IMG/VR virus record: IMGVR_UViG_3300020045_005585
Span: 1-26,709 of that record
Strand: one strand, 5' to 3'
Source of the DNA: a virus
Lineage: Duplodnaviria; Caudoviricetes
Length of the DNA: 26,709 nucleotides
A program made the translations under genes and the position numbers. Positions 3,260-24,926 of the stretch are shown here, one piece after another. Each line of letters opens with the position of its first letter. Positions within the stretch are counted from its first letter, which is position 1. The notes beneath the pieces are model-generated. The model saw only the letters and a program-made list of their open reading frames with translations, ran no database searches and had not been told where the DNA came from.

Positions 3260-3730
3260 ATGTCTAAGCGAAAACCTATTGCAGCACTAGCTGCTACACT
3301 TCTTATCGCCACTCCCTTCATTGGAACTTGGGAAGGAAAAGTAAATGATCCCTATAAAGATATTGCGGGTATTCCTACCGTTTGTTATGGAGAGACTCGT
3401 GTCCCTATGCGTCGATATACTGACGCCGAGTGTAAAGAAATGCTCGAGGAAGCTGTATCGGAATTTGCGGCTCCGGTACTTAAAGCGACTCCGACGCTCG
3501 CGGACAAGCCCTACGCTTTAGCTGCGGCTACTAGTCTGGCGTATAACATCGGAGTAGGAAGCTATAACGGTTCAACCGCGAGGAAGAGATTCCTCAAAGG
3601 CGACATCAAAGGGGGTTGTTCTGCCCTACGGTTTTGGGATAAGGCTAGAGTAAATGGTAAACTTCAAACAGTCAAAGGTTTGGCTAATAGAAGGACTGCG
3701 GAGTACAATATCTGTGTTAAAGACGTATAG
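3260..3730 (+). CDS. GH24 lysozyme, probable SAR endolysin
   Basis: Catalytic E-x8-D-x5-T triad in WEGKVNDPYKDIAGIPTVCYG and C-terminal GLANRR motif. Basic residues followed by a weakly hydrophobic Ala-rich N-terminus are typical of SAR anchors. AAGGAG RBS. Confidence 0.9.
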   Translation: MSKRKPIAALAATLLIATPFIGTWEGKVNDPYKDIAGIPTVCYGETRVPMRRYTDAECKEMLEEAVSEFAAPVLKATPTLADKPYALAAATSLAYNIGVGSYNGSTARKRFLKGDIKGGCSALRFWDKARVNGKLQTVKGLANRRTAEYNICVKDV

Positions 3731-4187
3731 TGCATATATATTAGCTGCTGCGCTGGCAGCTAGTTCATTAATGTTGTACGTTACAAACTTAAAACTTGAA
3801 ACGTCTAAAGCGCAGGTCGTAGCGGAGAGACAGAAGGTTGAGACTGTCACTGCTAATTGTAAAGCCGCGGCCAGTGAGGCTAAGGCTAAGAATATTGAAG
3901 AGGTAAAGAAAATTGAAGATGGTTATGAAAAGAAGGCAGAAGAATCTGACGTTCGGCTTGCTGACTTGCGTAAGCAGTTTAATGCTAATCTCTTGCAGTA
4001 CGCCAGCAAAGCTAGAGGTTCGTCCGGGAGTGTGCGTCTATCCAGCATTTCCCCAATTGCCGCAAGCGGCTACATTGCCGGTGACAGTACCGAAATTTCT
4101 ATTACCTTCGAAGACGCAGGAATCTGCGCAGAAAACACTGCCCGGCTCCAAGCCGTAAAGGAATGGGCAGATAAAATTAATCAGTAA
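3714..4187 (+). CDS. i-spanin (Rz-like)
   Basis: N-terminal TM segment (AYILAAALAASSLMLYV), then coiled coil and Cys residues. GTG at 3714 with upstream GGAG is preferred over the ORF-track start at 3654. Confidence 0.75.
   Translation: MLKTYSAYILAAALAASSLMLYVTNLKLETSKAQVVAERQKVETVTANCKAAASEAKAKNIEEVKKIEDGYEKKAEESDVRLADLRKQFNANLLQYASKARGSSGSVRLSSISPIAASGYIAGDSTEISITFEDAGICAENTARLQAVKEWADKINQ
3925..4158 (+). CDS. o-spanin lipoprotein (Rz1-like), embedded in the +1 frame of the i-spanin
   Basis: MKRRQK basic N-region, hydrophobic core, lipobox LISC and Pro-rich mature part; fully nested in the i-spanin, as in lambda Rz/Rz1. Confidence 0.7.
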   Translation: MKRRQKNLTFGLLTCVSSLMLISCSTPAKLEVRPGVCVYPAFPQLPQAATLPVTVPKFLLPSKTQESAQKTLPGSKP

Positions 4188-17337: not shown

Positions 17338-17489
17338 TTCTTTCCTACCTCTATAATGCGTTTTAGAAGATCAAGAGTTCTTTTGGAAGTATGTGGACTA
17401 GGATTTCTTATAATATCCTCAGCCTCTTTAGACCACCAAGCCTCAAGCTCCTCGGGACAGGGATCAGAGAGCCCGGAAGAAGTTAGCAT
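17334..17489 (-). CDS. 51-aa hypothetical protein
   Basis: MLTSSGLSDPCPEELEAWWSKEAEDII...; overlaps the ATP-grasp end and is coupled to the next ORF. Confidence 0.5.
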   Translation of the reverse strand: MLTSSGLSDPCPEELEAWWSKEAEDIIRNPSPHTSKRTLDLLKRIIEVGKK

Positions 17490-18219
17490 AGTCTTCGACG
17501 GTTTGACCTTCGAGGCCCGGGGCAGTGTTGATTTCGAGGACATATGCTCGCTCCTGTCTACTGTTCCAGATTACGTCGACGGCTCCGAAGTCGAGCCCAG
17601 AAGCCAAGAGTGAGCGTGATGCCACATCCGTGACTGCCACTGGTGGATTGATTCCGTTTCGGGCGAAGACGAACCCATTTCGGTGATTACGTACTTGCCA
17701 GTTGACTTCCGCGTCTGGCGTATCCGTGCGGCGCGCTTTCTTTTGGACGGCGATGATGATAGATTGCCCTGCTCGCATTCCGACATGGACACGATACTCC
17801 TCCTGTTTCTTCACGTACTGGACGTACAACGGAGCCCGTACGAGAGCAGTCCGAGTGTCAGCAATAACAATCCCGTCCCCGCTGTGGCCAGCAAGTACAG
17901 TCCGACATACAATCGGAAAAGCTTCGTCAGGGATGTCGGCTGGATCAGTCCAGAATCTTGGGATGAGATCAGCGAGGCCGCGGTCGGACATGGTGCGGAA
18001 GAAGTTGAGCTTGTTGGTTGCATGGGTGAGGTTGACTCCGTTCATGGTACACTTCTGATACTGTCGAGCATCCGTGTTGCCGTAGTTAATGATAACGTCG
18101 GTGGGACGAGGAATGAACCTCGAGCCCTCCAACTTCAGTACGGCTCCGTCTAGGGCTTCGGCCAGAGCTCTTGCTGCTCTGCTTCCCTGTCGGTAGGGGA
18201 GGACTCTGTAACGTGGCAT
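17464..18219 (-). CDS. RimK-like ATP-grasp ligase (phage type)
   Basis: ATNK, GHSGDGI, EYRVHV, VRNH, GLDFGAVDVI and VLEINTAPG motifs. Confidence 0.9.
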   Translation of the reverse strand: MPRYRVLPYRQGSRAARALAEALDGAVLKLEGSRFIPRPTDVIINYGNTDARQYQKCTMNGVNLTHATNKLNFFRTMSDRGLADLIPRFWTDPADIPDEAFPIVCRTVLAGHSGDGIVIADTRTALVRAPLYVQYVKKQEEYRVHVGMRAGQSIIIAVQKKARRTDTPDAEVNWQVRNHRNGFVFARNGINPPVAVTDVASRSLLASGLDFGAVDVIWNSRQERAYVLEINTAPGLEGQTVEDYANFFRAL

Positions 18220-18235: not shown

Positions 18236-19345
18236 TTAGTTAGGGCGGGCTGTGACCCAACCTAGGCCAGCGGGAGGGGCGGGTTCCCAAGCATCGATGG
18301 CTCTGCGAGGTTGCGCTCTTCCCGCTTCACGAGCCATACGAGTTAAGGCCTCAGCATCTCTTAGAGACATCGCAGGCTTAATCTTCTTCGGCTTCTCGAA
18401 GGGGTTAGGGATGTACTCCTTCTTGATCAGCTCGAGCCAAGCTCCCCAAGGGAATCCGAGCACCAGCGGCTGAACGATTCGGAAACCATCGAGGCACCGT
18501 TGATTGAATACTTCTTGGTCTCCGACGACTTCGGAAAGGAAGGTTGGAAGTCCCTTGCAGATGTCGGAGAAGATGGCATATCCGCCGCGTTCGGACAGGT
18601 CAGTCGCGATTGCAGTCGGGTCAGCATAGTTCTTGACGGCGTATTCGACGAAGGTGTCGACGAAGGTAGCCCATGTCGTGACGGTATCGGCAGCATTGGG
18701 AGATCCCCCGCAACGGATTTCGAAAGAACCCTTCGTCCAGAGAGGGAGGATGTTAAACGCCATATACTTCAAGCCGTTACGGGTCTCGCCCATACCGGGG
18801 AAATGGCCGTAGCGGAGATACTGTTCCCACGCTTGGACGAGAGAGAGGGAGTTCTTGTTGGAAAGGCAGAAGTGATTCGTGACCCGTTCTTCCCCGTTCC
18901 ATTCGATCAGCATCTCTTCGAAGGTACACCACAGAGCTATGATGCTCGTGAGTTCGTTCACCGTCCGGCCCTTCATATTGATGTGGACGTGGGTGGAGCA
19001 GCGATTGCTGTTGTCTACTCCTGACTTCAAGTCCTTGAAAGATTTGAAGAGAAGGTCTACGAGAGCGGGGACTTCCTCTCGCTTAGCCGGGCCAGAGAAG
19101 ATATACTCACGGGACTCACCGCGAAGAGACCCGTCTGCGACACCGACCCAGCGAGTCTTCGTGATAGGGGAGGCGTAATCGAGATGGCCGTCGCGCGGCA
19201 GGGGGTTCTTGGCCTCGATCTCCAACTCAAGGCCGATGGTGCCTTCGAAGGCGTTCTGTACAATAGGCTGGTTCATCGTGACGCCGGGGATGCCGACAGC
19301 CTTAGCCTTTGCCTTGTTGTACTTAGAAAAGAATTCTTCATCCAT
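18236..19345 (-). CDS. Amidoligase (COOH-NH2 ligase, glutamine synthetase/GCS fold)
   Basis: IGLELEIE, DGSL, RCSTHVHIN, KYMAFN and SFEIR motifs. Confidence 0.85.
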   Translation of the reverse strand: MDEEFFSKYNKAKAKAVGIPGVTMNQPIVQNAFEGTIGLELEIEAKNPLPRDGHLDYASPITKTRWVGVADGSLRGESREYIFSGPAKREEVPALVDLLFKSFKDLKSGVDNSNRCSTHVHINMKGRTVNELTSIIALWCTFEEMLIEWNGEERVTNHFCLSNKNSLSLVQAWEQYLRYGHFPGMGETRNGLKYMAFNILPLWTKGSFEIRCGGSPNAADTVTTWATFVDTFVEYAVKNYADPTAIATDLSERGGYAIFSDICKGLPTFLSEVVGDQEVFNQRCLDGFRIVQPLVLGFPWGAWLELIKKEYIPNPFEKPKKIKPAMSLRDAEALTRMAREAGRAQPRRAIDAWEPAPPAGLGWVTARPN

Positions 19346-19544
19346 TGTAAATAAGTCCTTTGCTCCGAAGAAGGTTAAGAACCTCTTCTGCTATTTCATC
19401 TGCTTCTACAACAGTGTGTTTTTCTGCGTCCCAGATTACGTCTGAAATTGCTCCCAACACTTGGTACTCAAGGAAGTCAGAACTCTCGGATGGTGTTGAT
19501 GGTGAAGGCTGCGTCATCCATGATCTCCTCTCGTAGGAAGGCAT
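19338..19544 (-). CDS. Small hypothetical protein
   Basis: Bridges neighbouring genes; ADEIAEEVLNLLRSKG helix; true start may be ATG 19517. Confidence 0.5.
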   Translation of the reverse strand: MPSYERRSWMTQPSPSTPSESSDFLEYQVLGAISDVIWDAEKHTVVEADEIAEEVLNLLRSKGLIYNG

Positions 19545-20160
19545 ACTTGGTCAGCAGGTTCAGAGTGTCGACTCCGGTGAAGAGACCTACGCAGTCAGTA
19601 TTTCGATAGAGCCAGCGGATACCTCTCGCGTCACGCATGACAGCGAACTTCGGACTCACTGCGATAGCCGATGCTTCTGCGATATTGTTCAACGTCCCTT
19701 CCAGCGAGGGATACTTCCCTACGGCCTGCTGCATAAACCCTTCATCGTACATGAAGTGGGCGAAGTTATAGTCACCCCCGTCACGAAGAAGAGGGTTGCC
19801 GTCGTCGTCACGGCTGCGGAAGTACTTCACCAGAGTGTTCTGAGCGGTCAGTCCGTGCTTGGTAGTCGTGTGGGCCCTACGGGATAGGAACACAGCCCCT
19901 GAGACGCGTCCTGAGGCGTTCATCCACCCGAGGGTAGGTAAGTCCCGGAAGCGCTTGAACTTGGGGCTGTTGAGCTTCTTACGAACCTCTTCCTGCTTCT
20001 CCCCGCACTGGCGAAGAGAAGCCCGGTGGTCTCCGTCAGGAAAGTCTGCCCCGTCAAGGAGATTGTTGACGTAGTAGGGAAGCCCGTCATAGAGGACTAC
20101 AGTATGGAGGAGGCGCTCCGACGCCTGCCTCATGTCAGTCCAGAAAATATCCTTAGCCAT
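19477..20160 (-). CDS. Hypothetical protein of the ligase cluster
   Basis: 227 aa with AAGGGG RBS, between the two COOH-NH2 ligases; LGWMN...VFLSRR motif. Confidence 0.75.
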   Translation of the reverse strand: MAKDIFWTDMRQASERLLHTVVLYDGLPYYVNNLLDGADFPDGDHRASLRQCGEKQEEVRKKLNSPKFKRFRDLPTLGWMNASGRVSGAVFLSRRAHTTTKHGLTAQNTLVKYFRSRDDDGNPLLRDGGDYNFAHFMYDEGFMQQAVGKYPSLEGTLNNIAEASAIAVSPKFAVMRDARGIRWLYRNTDCVGLFTGVDTLNLLTKYAFLREEIMDDAAFTINTIREF

Positions 20161-20170
20161 GTCATACCCC

Positions 20171-21082
20171 TTACGCTGCGACTTCGGTGACTTCTGCTTC
20201 TGTGACTGCGACCGTACGCATCGAATCCACGATGTTGTTGAAAGCAGTTTGCGCCGGGCCGTTGCCGTATAGCTGGTTAGCCACGATCATTTGAGCCGTT
20301 CCGAAATCACCTTCGTTGATGATGCGTTCGATATGTTCGGGTGAATACCCTCCCGTCATCCGGGCGACATCCCAACCTGCTGTCATCTTAGTAATAGCGT
20401 AGTTGCTCAGCGTGTGGATGACGAAGCGGCGGTCCTTCGTGCTGATCCAAGCGTTGGAAGGGGTCCGGTATTCGACGCCATAGGGCTTGGGTCGGAACGC
20501 CCCTGCCTTGCCGTACAGGTCGCGGCGGCGGGGATCGCGGTCGATGAAGCACATGAACATGCCAACGGTGGCGTCGAGAGCCTTGATGAAGTTGGCGCAG
20601 ATTTCGATGTGGTCTTCGTTGTCGACAGGAATATCGGCACCCCAACCATAATGGATGTGGCCAGCGCCGCTACGAAAAGCTCGATCACCATCGGGGCGTG
20701 GATTAGCTTGGAGAGTGTACGCGTTGAAGTCAGGGTCACAGCCGAGTTCCTTCACGTGAGCTGGCATCGAAGCCATGTAGTCAGGATCGAAATCCATGAC
20801 AGGCTGGACGGCAAGGTTGTACGTCTTGCCGTTGCGGTTGAGCTCTTCCCGGATATCGGCGATGGTCTTGACGATATTCTGGTTGAAGCGATCGAAGTCC
20901 CAAGATGGAACAGGGTCGATGTTGAATTCAGCAGCGAAGCCGTCCTGCTGGACAGCCCCTACCGAAGTCTTGAACGGAGCCTTCTTGTCACCCCTGAGAC
21001 CCGTCTCATAGACAGAGACAGGCTTGCCTTTGTACTTGACAAAGACTTCGGGATCGGCGCCAAATGTGAAGGAAGTACTCAT
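20171..21082 (-). CDS. phiEco32-like COOH-NH2 ligase type 2
   Basis: FGADPEVF, QQDG..AEFNI, LGCDPDFNAY, RSGAGHIH and RRRDLYGKAGAFRPKPYGVEYRTPSN; start at ATG 21082 (AAGGA RBS). Confidence 0.9.
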   Translation of the reverse strand: MSTSFTFGADPEVFVKYKGKPVSVYETGLRGDKKAPFKTSVGAVQQDGFAAEFNIDPVPSWDFDRFNQNIVKTIADIREELNRNGKTYNLAVQPVMDFDPDYMASMPAHVKELGCDPDFNAYTLQANPRPDGDRAFRSGAGHIHYGWGADIPVDNEDHIEICANFIKALDATVGMFMCFIDRDPRRRDLYGKAGAFRPKPYGVEYRTPSNAWISTKDRRFVIHTLSNYAITKMTAGWDVARMTGGYSPEHIERIINEGDFGTAQMIVANQLYGNGPAQTAFNNIVDSMRTVAVTEAEVTEVAA

Positions 21083-21121
21083 TATTAGATCCTTTATAAA
21101 GTTTTCTATTGACAAATCGGT

Positions 21122-21149
21122 TGCGAAGCCTAGTTTAACAAACTTCGCA
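21122..21149 (-). other. Hairpin spanning the amidotransferase stop codon
   Basis: TGCGAAGTTT...AGGCTTCGCA, 10 bp including two G.U pairs; possible processing or pause site. Confidence 0.4.
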
Positions 21150-22610
21150 GAGAGCATCGTTACCGGGTTCTTGTAGACAGTCAGTGCAGAGGACGTTATG
21201 CTCGTCTACGAACTCTGCAATATCAGTGATGTCCATCAAGGTAGTTTTACAGAAAGTGCATCGACCTTTCGTGTTAGCCATAACAGTGGCTTCGTCGAAT
21301 TCACGACTCGTAGCATTCCACGTAATATATGGAACACCGGCTACATTCCTGAAAGAGACACCGTCAAGCAACTTCCTGCTATAGTCGGTCTTCGATCCCG
21401 GACAATGTTCGGATTGCTTTCCTTTGGAGACCATTGGAAAGACGTTCGAATTGTTCGATGGTAGGGATAGAGTACTCTTTTTGGAGCTCGCCGTAGAAGT
21501 CGGCACCATCGGTGAAGCCGAAGGATTCACAGAGTTTCTCAAGAATTCGACGTTGTGTAGCTGAGAAGGTATCCCATCGGCTGGAGTTTTGGGCAGGCCT
21601 GCGAGGGCGCTGATCTTTTTGGACAGGTCCGAGGGCACTTCCAGCTTCTTTGTTTCGGCGTCTGGACTTCCGATTATGAAAGGGTTTGTTACAGTTCCTA
21701 CAGCCCCGGTAGGTTCCCGATTCCCGCCAGTTGTGAAGCCAACAGGGTTGGCCGACCTCTCATGGACGCCGGGAGAGGTTTCGACCCAGCGACCTTGCTG
21801 CCACTGGCCATACTGCCCGTCTCGGTTCCTATGCAGACCCCCACCAAAGTGCGTAGGAGTCTGATAAGACTTTTTTTCGACATGGATCTCCACGATAGGG
21901 CGGAGGGACATGACCTTTTCTTCGCCCTTTGCATCGGGGTTGATACGGAAGGACCACAGCGTATGCGGAGGAAGCTCATGATAGATCTCCCCCTTGTCGC
22001 CACCGTTCCAGAGCTTCTTCTTTCTGGCGACCGCGCCGAACATCCAGATTTCTGATGCCCAGAACATCGTCTTGAAGTCTTCCGACCATGTGAACCAGAG
22101 GGGGCGTTCGTTGTTGCGGAAGAAGTTCAGAGTTCCCGCGTCATTGTCCCACCATACACAGGCGTAAGCACCTTCTGCCTTCTTAAAGGTATCTTCGACA
22201 CCATTCTTGGCCATGTGGCCATAGAGGACTTCGGAGTCAACCTTGCCGTGATGGTAGGTGTCGAGAGAATGCTGGTTCCGAAGAGTCCCGTTATGGACGC
22301 CGATGATACCCTGTTCAGGAAAGTCGAAGGGGTGAGCGTTCTTGACATTGACTTCCCCAACCGTTTTGCTACGGCAGTGGCCAATCAGTGCCTGTGACTC
22401 ACCCTCGATGTGGCGATCCCATTGCTTGCTATCGTAGAGATAGGCAGGAGGGCCGACCTGCTTTGCGAAGTCGTAACCCCCGTGCTTCTCCACCTTGACG
22501 ACGCCGGTGCTGTCACGACCTCGTACGGCACAGACATCCAACATGTCCTTCATTATTCGATTGCGGAGCTCGTGATCGAGGACTCCCGCCATTCCGACTA
22601 AACCACACAT
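21135..22610 (-). CDS. Class II (Ntn) glutamine amidotransferase with long linker and C-terminal Zn finger
   Basis: N-terminal MCG nucleophile, RGRDSTG, GHCRSKT, NAHPF, HNGT and VDSE; C-terminal CTFC...CTDC. Confidence 0.92.
   Translation of the reverse strand: MCGLVGMAGVLDHELRNRIMKDMLDVCAVRGRDSTGVVKVEKHGGYDFAKQVGPPAYLYDSKQWDRHIEGESQALIGHCRSKTVGEVNVKNAHPFDFPEQGIIGVHNGTLRNQHSLDTYHHGKVDSEVLYGHMAKNGVEDTFKKAEGAYACVWWDNDAGTLNFFRNNERPLWFTWSEDFKTMFWASEIWMFGAVARKKKLWNGGDKGEIYHELPPHTLWSFRINPDAKGEEKVMSLRPIVEIHVEKKSYQTPTHFGGGLHRNRDGQYGQWQQGRWVETSPGVHERSANPVGFTTGGNREPTGAVGTVTNPFIIGSPDAETKKLEVPSDLSKKISALAGLPKTPADGIPSQLHNVEFLRNSVNPSASPMVPTSTASSKKSTLSLPSNNSNVFPMVSKGKQSEHCPGSKTDYSRKLLDGVSFRNVAGVPYITWNATSREFDEATVMANTKGRCTFCKTTLMDITDIAEFVDEHNVLCTDCLQEPGNDALCEVC
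21379..21759 (-). CDS. Start-less -1 frame nested in the amidotransferase (alternative C-terminus)
   Basis: 126 sense codons between TGA 21760-21762 and TAG 21379-21381, ending RWDTFSATQRRILEKLCESFGFTDGADFYGELQKEYSIPTIEQFERLSNGLQRKAIRTLSGIEDRL*. Confidence 0.55.
   Translation of the reverse strand, partial: EVGQPCWLHNWRESGTYRGCRNCNKPFHNRKSRRRNKEAGSALGPVQKDQRPRRPAQNSSRWDTFSATQRRILEKLCESFGFTDGADFYGELQKEYSIPTIEQFERLSNGLQRKAIRTLSGIEDRL
21834..21891 (-). promoter_or_regulatory. Programmed -1 ribosomal frameshift signal
   Basis: GGAG, 11 nt, in-frame A_AAA_AAG (21876-21870), 6-nt spacer, then 11-bp hairpin CAGACTCCTAC/GTGGGGGTCTG. Confidence 0.75.
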
Positions 22611-22654: not shown

Positions 22655-23026
22655 CTAAGTACGCTCGTTGAGCAGGTGTTGAACGCGTTGCCTTGACAGC
22701 GAAACACGTTTGGCGATTTTATCAGGACTGTAACCTTCCTCACGTAACCGCAGAATGGCTTCAATCTTGTCGTCTAAGACACCTTTACCTTCTGTCTCCA
22801 TCAGATAATAAACGTCTTTGTGAGGTTTGAACCACTCACCCATCAACCTATGCTTGCGCAAACGTCTGTGGAAAAGCATTTCATCTTCACGTGTTCCTTC
22901 AAAAGATTTGATAATCTGAAGAAGATATGGGTATCCTGTTTGGATAGCCGTTAGCCGACTCTCTGGATTTGTTGAGAATCCAATTTTTATTGGCCCTTTT
23001 TCAATGTCTTGTATAAAGTAAATCAT
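22655..23026 (-). CDS. GIY-YIG (T5orf172/MUG113-like) nuclease with C-terminal HTH
   Basis: IYFI...IKIGFS...RLTAIQTG...E...H...GEWF; HTH GYSPDKIAKRVSLSRQRVQHLL. Confidence 0.82.
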   Translation of the reverse strand: MIYFIQDIEKGPIKIGFSTNPESRLTAIQTGYPYLLQIIKSFEGTREDEMLFHRRLRKHRLMGEWFKPHKDVYYLMETEGKGVLDDKIEAILRLREEGYSPDKIAKRVSLSRQRVQHLLNERT

Positions 23027-23963: not shown

Positions 23964-24926
23964 TCAAGTCCGATCCCAAAGGTTGGAGAAGTGTTGGTTA
24001 AGGAAGGGGGCGAGGACTTCGACGGCCTCCCTATTTGTGATCTCGTCCGCCGCGGTCGGAATAAAACCGACAGGCTTTGGCGCGAACGGGTTCGGAGGTT
24101 TGTAAAAAGACTCTTCATTGCCATGGCGGAATTCCTTCAAAGCGGAAACAAAGGCCGGAAACTTCAGACAGTCCTTTACAAGACCATACTCTTGGGTGTA
24201 AATCGAAGACGGAACGTCGAAATCCCAGAAGATAGAACGACCACCCAGATAGTCTCGTCTGGTACGGTAGTGTTCGGAGGGCTTGTTGATGTCCTTCTCT
24301 GTAGCCTTACCCGGATTTCCCGTGAGGAAATTCTGGAACGCGGAGAGATTGAAGAGGTGTGTCACCCGATGCGAGTAATAGCTCTGGAACTTCGAGTTCA
24401 GCAGCGACTTCGTAGACAGCGAAGAGTTAAATGCCAGAGCGTAAGCAATGTCAGGGTTGATCCCTTTCTCTACGAAATCGTTGAAGGTCTTGAAACCGTC
24501 CTCGTGGACCTCGTAGAAGTGACGGGTCATGATCATGATATTCTGCAGAAGAGGTGCATAGATATCCGCAGACACTACGAAGCCGTCGTCGATGTCAGAG
24601 AAGACGATGTAGGGTGCGAAAGGTGAAGTCTTCGTCAGAAAGTCGAAGTAAGGTTGGAAAAGCTCTTTCGACCCCTTCCCGATTGCCTGACGTCGACGTG
24701 ACCACCCGCATTCCGTCGCCACGAGGGAACGGTCAGAGCGAATCTCATAAGAGATTTCCCGGTGGCACGGCTGGGACATACACTCCCGTTGGTCTTCGCG
24801 CGCCAGAATCATGAAGTTAGCTGCGTAACCGAAGTGCTTCTTGTTGTCACGAAGCCATGAGACACAGGTGGCGACCTGTTCCTCAGTATGCTTTGGGTTG
24901 AAATCCAACCCCTTGATGAAAGCCAT
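23964..24926 (-). CDS. Hypothetical protein
   Basis: 320 aa with AAGGG RBS, coupled to the class I amidotransferase; no family recognised. Confidence 0.75.
   Translation of the reverse strand: MAFIKGLDFNPKHTEEQVATCVSWLRDNKKHFGYAANFMILAREDQRECMSQPCHREISYEIRSDRSLVATECGWSRRRQAIGKGSKELFQPYFDFLTKTSPFAPYIVFSDIDDGFVVSADIYAPLLQNIMIMTRHFYEVHEDGFKTFNDFVEKGINPDIAYALAFNSSLSTKSLLNSKFQSYYSHRVTHLFNLSAFQNFLTGNPGKATEKDINKPSEHYRTRRDYLGGRSIFWDFDVPSSIYTQEYGLVKDCLKFPAFVSALKEFRHGNEESFYKPPNPFAPKPVGFIPTAADEITNREAVEVLAPFLNQHFSNLWDRT

Follow-up and report, generated by a model that had tools for sequence, protein, structure and literature searches.

The stretch of DNA analyzed here (hereafter the window) comprises the 26,709 nucleotides (nt) of the virus record IMGVR_UViG_3300020045_005585 (Duplodnaviria; Caudoviricetes), and this work concerns one of its genes, encoding a class II glutamine amidotransferase, together with a second reading frame nested within that gene. 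Positions are those of the window, and features lie on the minus (-) strand unless stated otherwise. The annotated frame of the gene (frame 0; 21135..22610) encodes 491 amino acids (aa; 54.5 kDa) and matches PF13522 (E 2e-17), phrog_4736 and the PurF and GlmS folds (E 3e-12). It displays the class II features, namely a Cys at position 2, an N-terminal nucleophile (Ntn) fold and invariant RGRDSTG and HNG motifs, all of which presumably have catalytic roles. On sequence and structure prediction the product is thus a class II (Ntn) glutamine amidotransferase with predicted glutaminase activity. The glutaminase domain (residues ~1-245; 21876..22610), common to all predicted products, is modeled by AlphaFold with a predicted local distance difference test score (pLDDT) of 81-98 over residues 1-250. 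Further downstream, a Ser/Pro-rich linker (residues 338-412; 21375..21599; pLDDT <50) is predicted to be disordered and leads to a C-terminal domain (21162..21359; pLDDT 89-95 over residues 421-480) with invariant C451, C454, C475 and C478. This domain is likely a zinc finger: the CxxC..CxxC pattern is found in 32 of the 33 complete genes of the clade defined below, and Atlas searches returned no named family for it. The second frame, in the -1 register, runs for 126 codons from stop to stop (21379..21759) and encodes a conserved 72-aa four-helix domain (21382..21597; hereafter the core) modeled with a pLDDT of 92.6. The initial annotation had already described this frame as lacking a usable start and as encoding a folded helical domain where frame 0 turns Ser-rich, and both statements hold.

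A protein search with the amidotransferase gave 2867 matches, the best 120 of which were used, and in an alignment of the query with its best 40 relatives Pro310-Phe311 is invariant in an otherwise variable linker. A first locus search with a single protein returned no matches; locus searches yielded 46 and 38 loci. The tree was restricted to the first 235 residues in order to avoid circular selection by the site under study (78 rows; 10 duplicates and 1 short row removed, the window and 4 named phages added). The window falls in a clade of 35 rows (support 95/93), two of which end before the site, leaving 33 testable genes. For statistics we used 30 non-redundant genes (<80% identical, from 34; pairwise identity 26-78%). 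As this set was chosen by presence of the slippery heptamer described below, the count from the tree is the unbiased figure for heptamer conservation.

We then analyzed the -1 frame itself. An open -1 frame of 86-144 codons follows the heptamer in all 33 testable clade genes; in one of them (L064) it ends at the contig end after 88 codons. When the annotated frame of the window was recoded synonymously, the 101-codon tail stayed open in 0 of 2000 trials, and across the clade genes it did so in at most 0.3% of trials. In the 30-gene set about 254 stops were expected in the 3336 codons of the -1 tails and none was observed, so the stops in close homologs that would have argued against the initial annotation are absent. 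The substitution pattern points the same way. Nine pairs of near relatives were compared at the three codon positions of frame 0. In the core, the differences per codon at positions 1/2/3 amounted to 0.15/0.33/0.23, whereas the glutaminase domain had 0.15/0.10/0.42 and the zinc-finger part 0.21/0.13/0.41 (shift of the core at positions 2 and 3 relative to the glutaminase domain, p 3e-34 and 1e-15). Because frame-0 position 2 is the wobble position of the -1 frame, the core is governed by the -1 protein. Frame 0 nevertheless stays open across the core, through to the putative zinc finger, which is itself conserved. These results support the proposal of dual coding and indicate that the -1 frame (21759-21379) is under selection.

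Entry into this frame was traced to the heptamer C_CCT_TTC (21678..21684), where a -1 shift would give a product of 410 aa (46.6 kDa), the size of about 410 aa foreseen in the initial annotation. An in-frame C_CCT_TTY heptamer is present in 33/33 testable clade genes. The residue before the Pro varies (N, S, R, D, A or L), its codon ends in C in 30/30 genes and the Pro codon is CCT in 30/30; an invariant His-Pro-Phe of the same genes, taken as a control, uses CCCTTT in only 4/29. The earlier caveat that Asn-Pro-Phe codons could create the heptamer by chance is therefore set aside. Around the site a single third position out of 69 differs in the nine pairs. In five genes (L002, L003, L004, L054 and L061) a -1 stop immediately precedes the heptamer, so that entry cannot occur earlier. 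The -1 frame of the window contains no ATG, GTG or TTG before the core, the sole such codon being a TTG 93 codons past the heptamer; in the clade such codons precede the core in 8/30 genes, at scattered positions and without a conserved start. As for the double slippery site that had been suggested, its C_CCT_TTC half (21684-21678) stands, and the overlapping A_AAC_CCT (21687-21681), present as described, is found in only 1/30 genes and is rejected as incidental. Likewise C_AAA_AAG (21621-21615) is not retained as an alternative entry, an A_AAG tetramer lying between site and core in 11/30 genes in scattered places. Upstream of the heptamer we found a weak Shine-Dalgarno (SD)-like AGGA (21696..21699; 11 nt before it), which is GGAGG in most relatives. 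In 26/30 genes an SD-like 4-mer has its end 9-14 nt before the heptamer, compared with 417/6150 background positions (6.8%), and none of 300 synonymous recodings paired as strongly. A distance of 9-14 nt is the SD spacing for -1 shifts (PMC5009743), C_CC.U_UU.C is a high-level -1 motif in E. coli with H_HH.U_UU.Y and V_VV.A_AA.R among the best, and a 3' structure is optional for bacterial -1 frameshifting (PMC4066793).

The core is confined to the clade. It was found in 0/43 tree rows outside it, and a core profile gave E values of 1e-10 or lower for clade loci and L097 alone, the next best match having E 0.08. L097, which was obtained after the tree was built, has both slippery sites and the helical domain. 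This clade phage contig is filed in a bacterial genome bin; it was probably co-binned, so the bin says nothing on the host. The domain is absent from the cultured phages PA11, RIO-1, VPp1, Pecta, GP100 and a PaP3-like phage, and tblastn against named phages gave a single match at E 8 with the -1 peptide of the window and none with the L053 tail; accordingly no cultured clade member was found. A DNA pattern scan returned 22 loci and no new clade genes: 8 were already known and 14 came from a single unrelated gene. That gene, in L100 and 13 near-identical loci (L103-L109, L113, L114, L116-L118 and L121), is a portal gene (PF06381) with GGAGG..C_CCT_TTT at 1224-1201 (- strand) and a -1 stop immediately behind it, some 143 codons short of the gene end; it represents one phage type only, and a possible frameshift there would give two portal proteins, one short and one long. 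Outside the clade, L073 has C_CCT_TTA at codon 250 and then a 67-codon -1 frame of different sequence, which overlaps a frame 0 rich in Ser and Thr and may be an overprint of independent origin. The distant contigs L042 and L076-L081 carry tandem pairs of class II amidotransferase genes; their short open reading frames (ORFs) were considered as split genes and rejected, being these tandem genes.

Database searches did not assign the core to a known family. Sequence searches of Pfam, PHROG and the PDB gave no match, Foldseek returned nothing at E 0.001, the best Z in fold comparison was 7.2, to generic helical bundles, Atlas searches gave only sub-0.9 hypothetical clusters and word-index protein searches with the -1 alignment gave nothing. 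None of the best 120 of the 2867 homologous proteins has the domain in frame 0. When 1.84 billion proteins were searched with a profile of the core, seven matched. Two (P0121 and P0122) are stand-alone ORFs of the -1 domain called by gene finders from GTG or TTG starts on short contigs, and P0124 is a 395-aa singleton with the glutaminase and the -1 domain in one frame, which may be a natural in-frame fixation or an assembly indel. The other four, P0123 (a PPR protein), P0125, P0126 and P0127, match over stretches that are short or repetitive (E 9e-7 to 4e-4) and were set aside as probable chance matches.

A second slippery heptamer, A_AAA_AAG (21870..21876), lies just past the glutaminase domain. 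A -1 shift there would add a 15-codon tail ending at a TAG (21829..21831), giving 260 aa (29.7 kDa). An SD-like GGAG (21888..21891) precedes this heptamer by 11 nt, and a hairpin is predicted 3' of it (21827..21869; 11-bp core 21863-21834, 6 nt past the heptamer; -26.2 kcal/mol, z -4.56, 0/200 shuffles as stable). In the window this site thus has the dnaX-type anatomy of A_AAA_AAG, an SD-like element ~10 nt upstream, a hairpin and an early -1 stop. In the clade, 22/30 genes have, just past the glutaminase domain, a heptamer that ends in an A or U triplet, against a mean of 7.0 (maximum 14 in 1000) under a null that keeps protein and codon usage; the types are A_AAA_AAR, G_GGA_AAM, A_AAT_TTT and C_CCT_TTN. 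Within the glutaminase domain they are depleted (7 observed, 17 expected). A_AAA_AAG is used by 6/21 Lys-Lys pairs of this stretch compared with 3/223 in neighbouring ORFs, and none of 300 recoded controls had as strong an SD-like signal before the upstream heptamers. In L007 the upstream site opens straight into the frame of the helical domain. A similar excess is seen outside the clade, where high-efficiency motifs occur at codons 205-300 in 21/36 genes (null 8.9, maximum 16 in 500) and at codons 5-200 in 3/36 (null 12.2). Of 11 named phages, 7 have a motif (null 3.9, maximum 8), an excess that is weak when genes are counted; PA11, VPp1, Pecta and GP100 are among the seven, RIO-1 is not. Past the glutaminase domain, at codons 237-277, heptamers were also observed in the cultured-phage loci L085 (PA11) and L089-L094, and A_AAT_TTT at codon 240 and G_GGA_AAG at codons 265-266 are common to PA11 and FBPa8.

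Together these features point to programmed -1 ribosomal frameshifting at C_CCU_UUY, which probably yields the 410-aa product beside the 491-aa zinc-finger form; the upstream site would add the 260-aa product. A share of ribosomes would slip back one base at C_CCU_UUY and make the glutaminase joined to the predicted four-helix domain in place of the zinc finger, and an earlier slip at A_AAA_AAG would leave a 260-aa form consisting of the glutaminase only. The main shift would very probably work by tandem re-pairing of tRNA-Pro (CCU to CCC) and tRNA-Phe (UUY to UUU), helped by pairing of 16S rRNA with the SD-like element 9-14 nt upstream and without 3' structure. For the upstream site we lean towards use, in the window in a dnaX-like manner with the SD-like element and the hairpin.

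Several observations weigh against this interpretation. The SD-like element of the window is weak (-4.2 kcal/mol, clade mean -9.5), and 4/30 genes have none at 9-14 nt. No 3' structure was found at the main site in the next 45 nt of the 30 genes (mean z 0.0; pseudoknots and long-range pairing not covered) or in the window (z -0.45 and 0.88), so frameshift efficiency may be low. The motif efficiencies are E. coli values. In L068 the heptamer is at a different position. P0124, the only protein with both domains in one frame, is a single sequence and possibly an assembly indel. The shared ancestry of clade members means that pooled p-values overstate independence. At the upstream site, the heptamer is absent in 8/30 clade genes and varies among four types, the hairpin is far from universal in the clade (mean z -1.0), and the test windows were chosen after matches had been seen; these points keep our confidence in its use below that in the main site. 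The three-product design put forward in the initial annotation is supported by comparative evidence, its upstream site being of variable type and lacking in those 8 genes.

We considered whether the open -1 frame could be due to chance, a by-product of the Ser-rich frame 0 or an assembly artefact. Long off-frame ORFs are indeed common in these genes, with +1 frames of 100-200 codons; these vary in place from gene to gene, for which reason the idea of a conserved +1 frame was rejected, whereas the -1 frame is kept in 33/33 genes at 26-78% protein identity and has its own conserved sequence and wobble pattern. Contigs from another public run are identical to the window over 21431-21581 and 21625-21775, without gaps (depth 2, possibly not independent data), and so speak against an assembly slip in these stretches. 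The stop, tree and substitution tests refute this explanation, to which we give practically no weight. It is also very unlikely that the frame is a separate overlapping gene translated from an internal start as a free small helical protein. The conservation of the SD-like element and the stand-alone ORFs P0121 and P0122 would fit such a gene; start codons before the core, however, are scattered in the few genes that have them and missing in the window, in 19/30 genes the Val codon directly behind the SD-like element reads GTA and so is not a start codon, and the invariant X_XXY_YYZ heptamer at the known -1 spacing would be left unexplained. RNA polymerase slippage, adding one base in the T run, would make the same fusion, and the run has 4-6 bases in 21/30 genes, with the upstream site lying in a run of seven A. 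Productive polymerase slippage usually needs longer runs; the T run is just 3 in 9/30 genes, the window among them, and the SD-like element and perfect tRNA re-pairing favour the ribosome, making a transcriptional origin similarly improbable.

With ribosomal frameshifting at the main site preferred, two further alternatives concern the number of products and their use. The upstream heptamers could be by-products of a Lys/Gly/Asn-rich linker, leaving only two products. This would agree with their absence from part of the clade, their four types and their short, unconserved tails; their excess, however, survives both the protein and codon-usage null and the same-dipeptide comparison in neighbouring ORFs, recurs outside the clade and is accompanied by the SD-like signal, and we regard a two-product gene as rather unlikely. 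Concerning function, a class II glutaminase domain supplies a synthase with ammonia, and here the putative synthases are separate genes that adjoin the amidotransferase in all clade loci of sufficient length. Given long flexible linkers and alternative tails, the simplest use would be to dock the glutaminase to different partners in a defined proportion. The tails may thus be alternative docking modules that link one glutaminase to different amidoligase or ATP-grasp partners in a fixed ratio, the short form being free glutaminase; this is the weakest of our suggestions and is put forward tentatively. About as plausible is that the -1 domain does not dock to a ligase but uses its basic last helix to bind a nucleic acid, the membrane or an acidic protein of the host, or that the product regulates the full-length enzyme. 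The last 25 core residues carry a net charge of +4 to +10 in 30/32 aligned cores, and conservation in the core is highest for a Gln and for basic residues of the last helix; on the other side, the core of the window is slightly acidic (pI 5.3, last 25 residues +1) and the gene remains within the ligase cassette in all clade loci of sufficient length. The complete scheme, in which two SD-stimulated -1 sites in series give 260, 410 and 491 aa, one of them through an overprinted domain, each form is wired to a different partner, and the truncating site has been overlooked in the PA11/VPp1/Citrovirus/PaP3 group, is likewise speculative.

The cassette around the amidotransferase gene comprises a COOH.NH2 ligase type 2 (20171..21157, likely start 21082; PF14395, phrog_3815), a conserved gene of unknown function (19477..20160; 227 aa, phrog_11055), an amidoligase (18236..19345; phrog_7469, E 2e-42), an ATP-grasp enzyme (17464..18219; phrog_2599, E 1e-69) and a class I glutamine amidotransferase (Peptidase C26; 23180..24124; PF07722, E 2e-24). 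The window also encodes a lysozyme, a B12-type ribonucleotide reductase and a family A polymerase. The best named matches of the amidotransferase are PA11-like and other Zobellviridae phages, at up to ~43% identity in the N-terminal half only, and the cassette order is that of PA11, which suggests a placement in the Zobellviridae. Upstream of the class I amidotransferase lies a 320-aa gene of unknown function (23964-24926, -) whose BLAST matches are confined to clade loci; its product may be a partner of the -1 domain, and closeness alone could explain the clade restriction. Between both amidotransferase genes is a GIY-YIG-like (MUG113/T5orf172) and helix-turn-helix gene (22655-23026, -), likely a mobile endonuclease, with no BLAST match in related loci. 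After the lysozyme gene, an ORF with an N-terminal hydrophobic stretch (3654-4187, +) nests a small Cys-containing ORF (3913-4158, +); neither has a Pfam match, and we take the pair to resemble the Rz/Rz1 spanin layout.

No frameshift is annotated in these genes in the 12 relatives' records examined, 2 of which carry no annotation at all, and full-text literature searches, which did not extend to subscription papers, returned no report of one. The available text of PMC6209634 and PMC10580990 does not contain the word 'frameshift', and that of PMC10885494, PMC5009743 and the preprint 10.1101/2025.10.02.679949 does not contain 'amidotransferase'. Of the 18,672 sites predicted in Gammaproteobacteria in the preprint, only five had frameshift products with a new domain. 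What is new here is a frameshift in this enzyme, an internal overprinted domain and two sites in series; the mechanism itself is of a known kind. The gene would provide a compact example from nature in which a folded domain overprints a disordered linker, would reveal a protein family missed by gene callers and would offer a handle on a widespread phage cassette with a hypothetical function, and its upstream site is directly testable in cultured phages.

Comparison with known systems places the two sites differently. The upstream site matches E. coli dnaX (tau/gamma), which has the same A_AAA_AAG, an upstream SD-like element, a 3' stem-loop and a C-terminal cut-off (PMC5009743); the window gene has a further, downstream site, which would swap in a folded domain instead of truncating. 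As in the IS3/IS911 -1 frameshifts, the main site combines an SD-like element, placed at the distance known for -1 shifts, with one of the high-efficiency heptamers of E. coli (PMC4066793), but the window gene is not a transposase, uses C_CCU_UUY rather than the A-rich motifs dominant in IS elements and has no detected 3' structure. The phiEco32/PA11/RIO-1/LUZ24 amidoligase cassette of Zobellviridae-like phages has the same gene set, in PA11 order, and a role in cell-wall modification against superinfection has been proposed for it as a hypothesis (PMC5498523, PMC10580990); the cultured members examined, unlike the window, lack the -1 domain. Finally, -1 shifts in the lambda G/GT tail-assembly chaperone and in the capsid or tail Ig-like extensions of T3, T7, A2 and A118 give alternative or longer phage products (PMC5009743, PMC10885494), and the phage frameshifts covered in the review texts consulted are nearly all in virion or tail-assembly genes. 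Unlike these, the present case is an enzyme gene in which one domain would be replaced by another encoded on the same bases.
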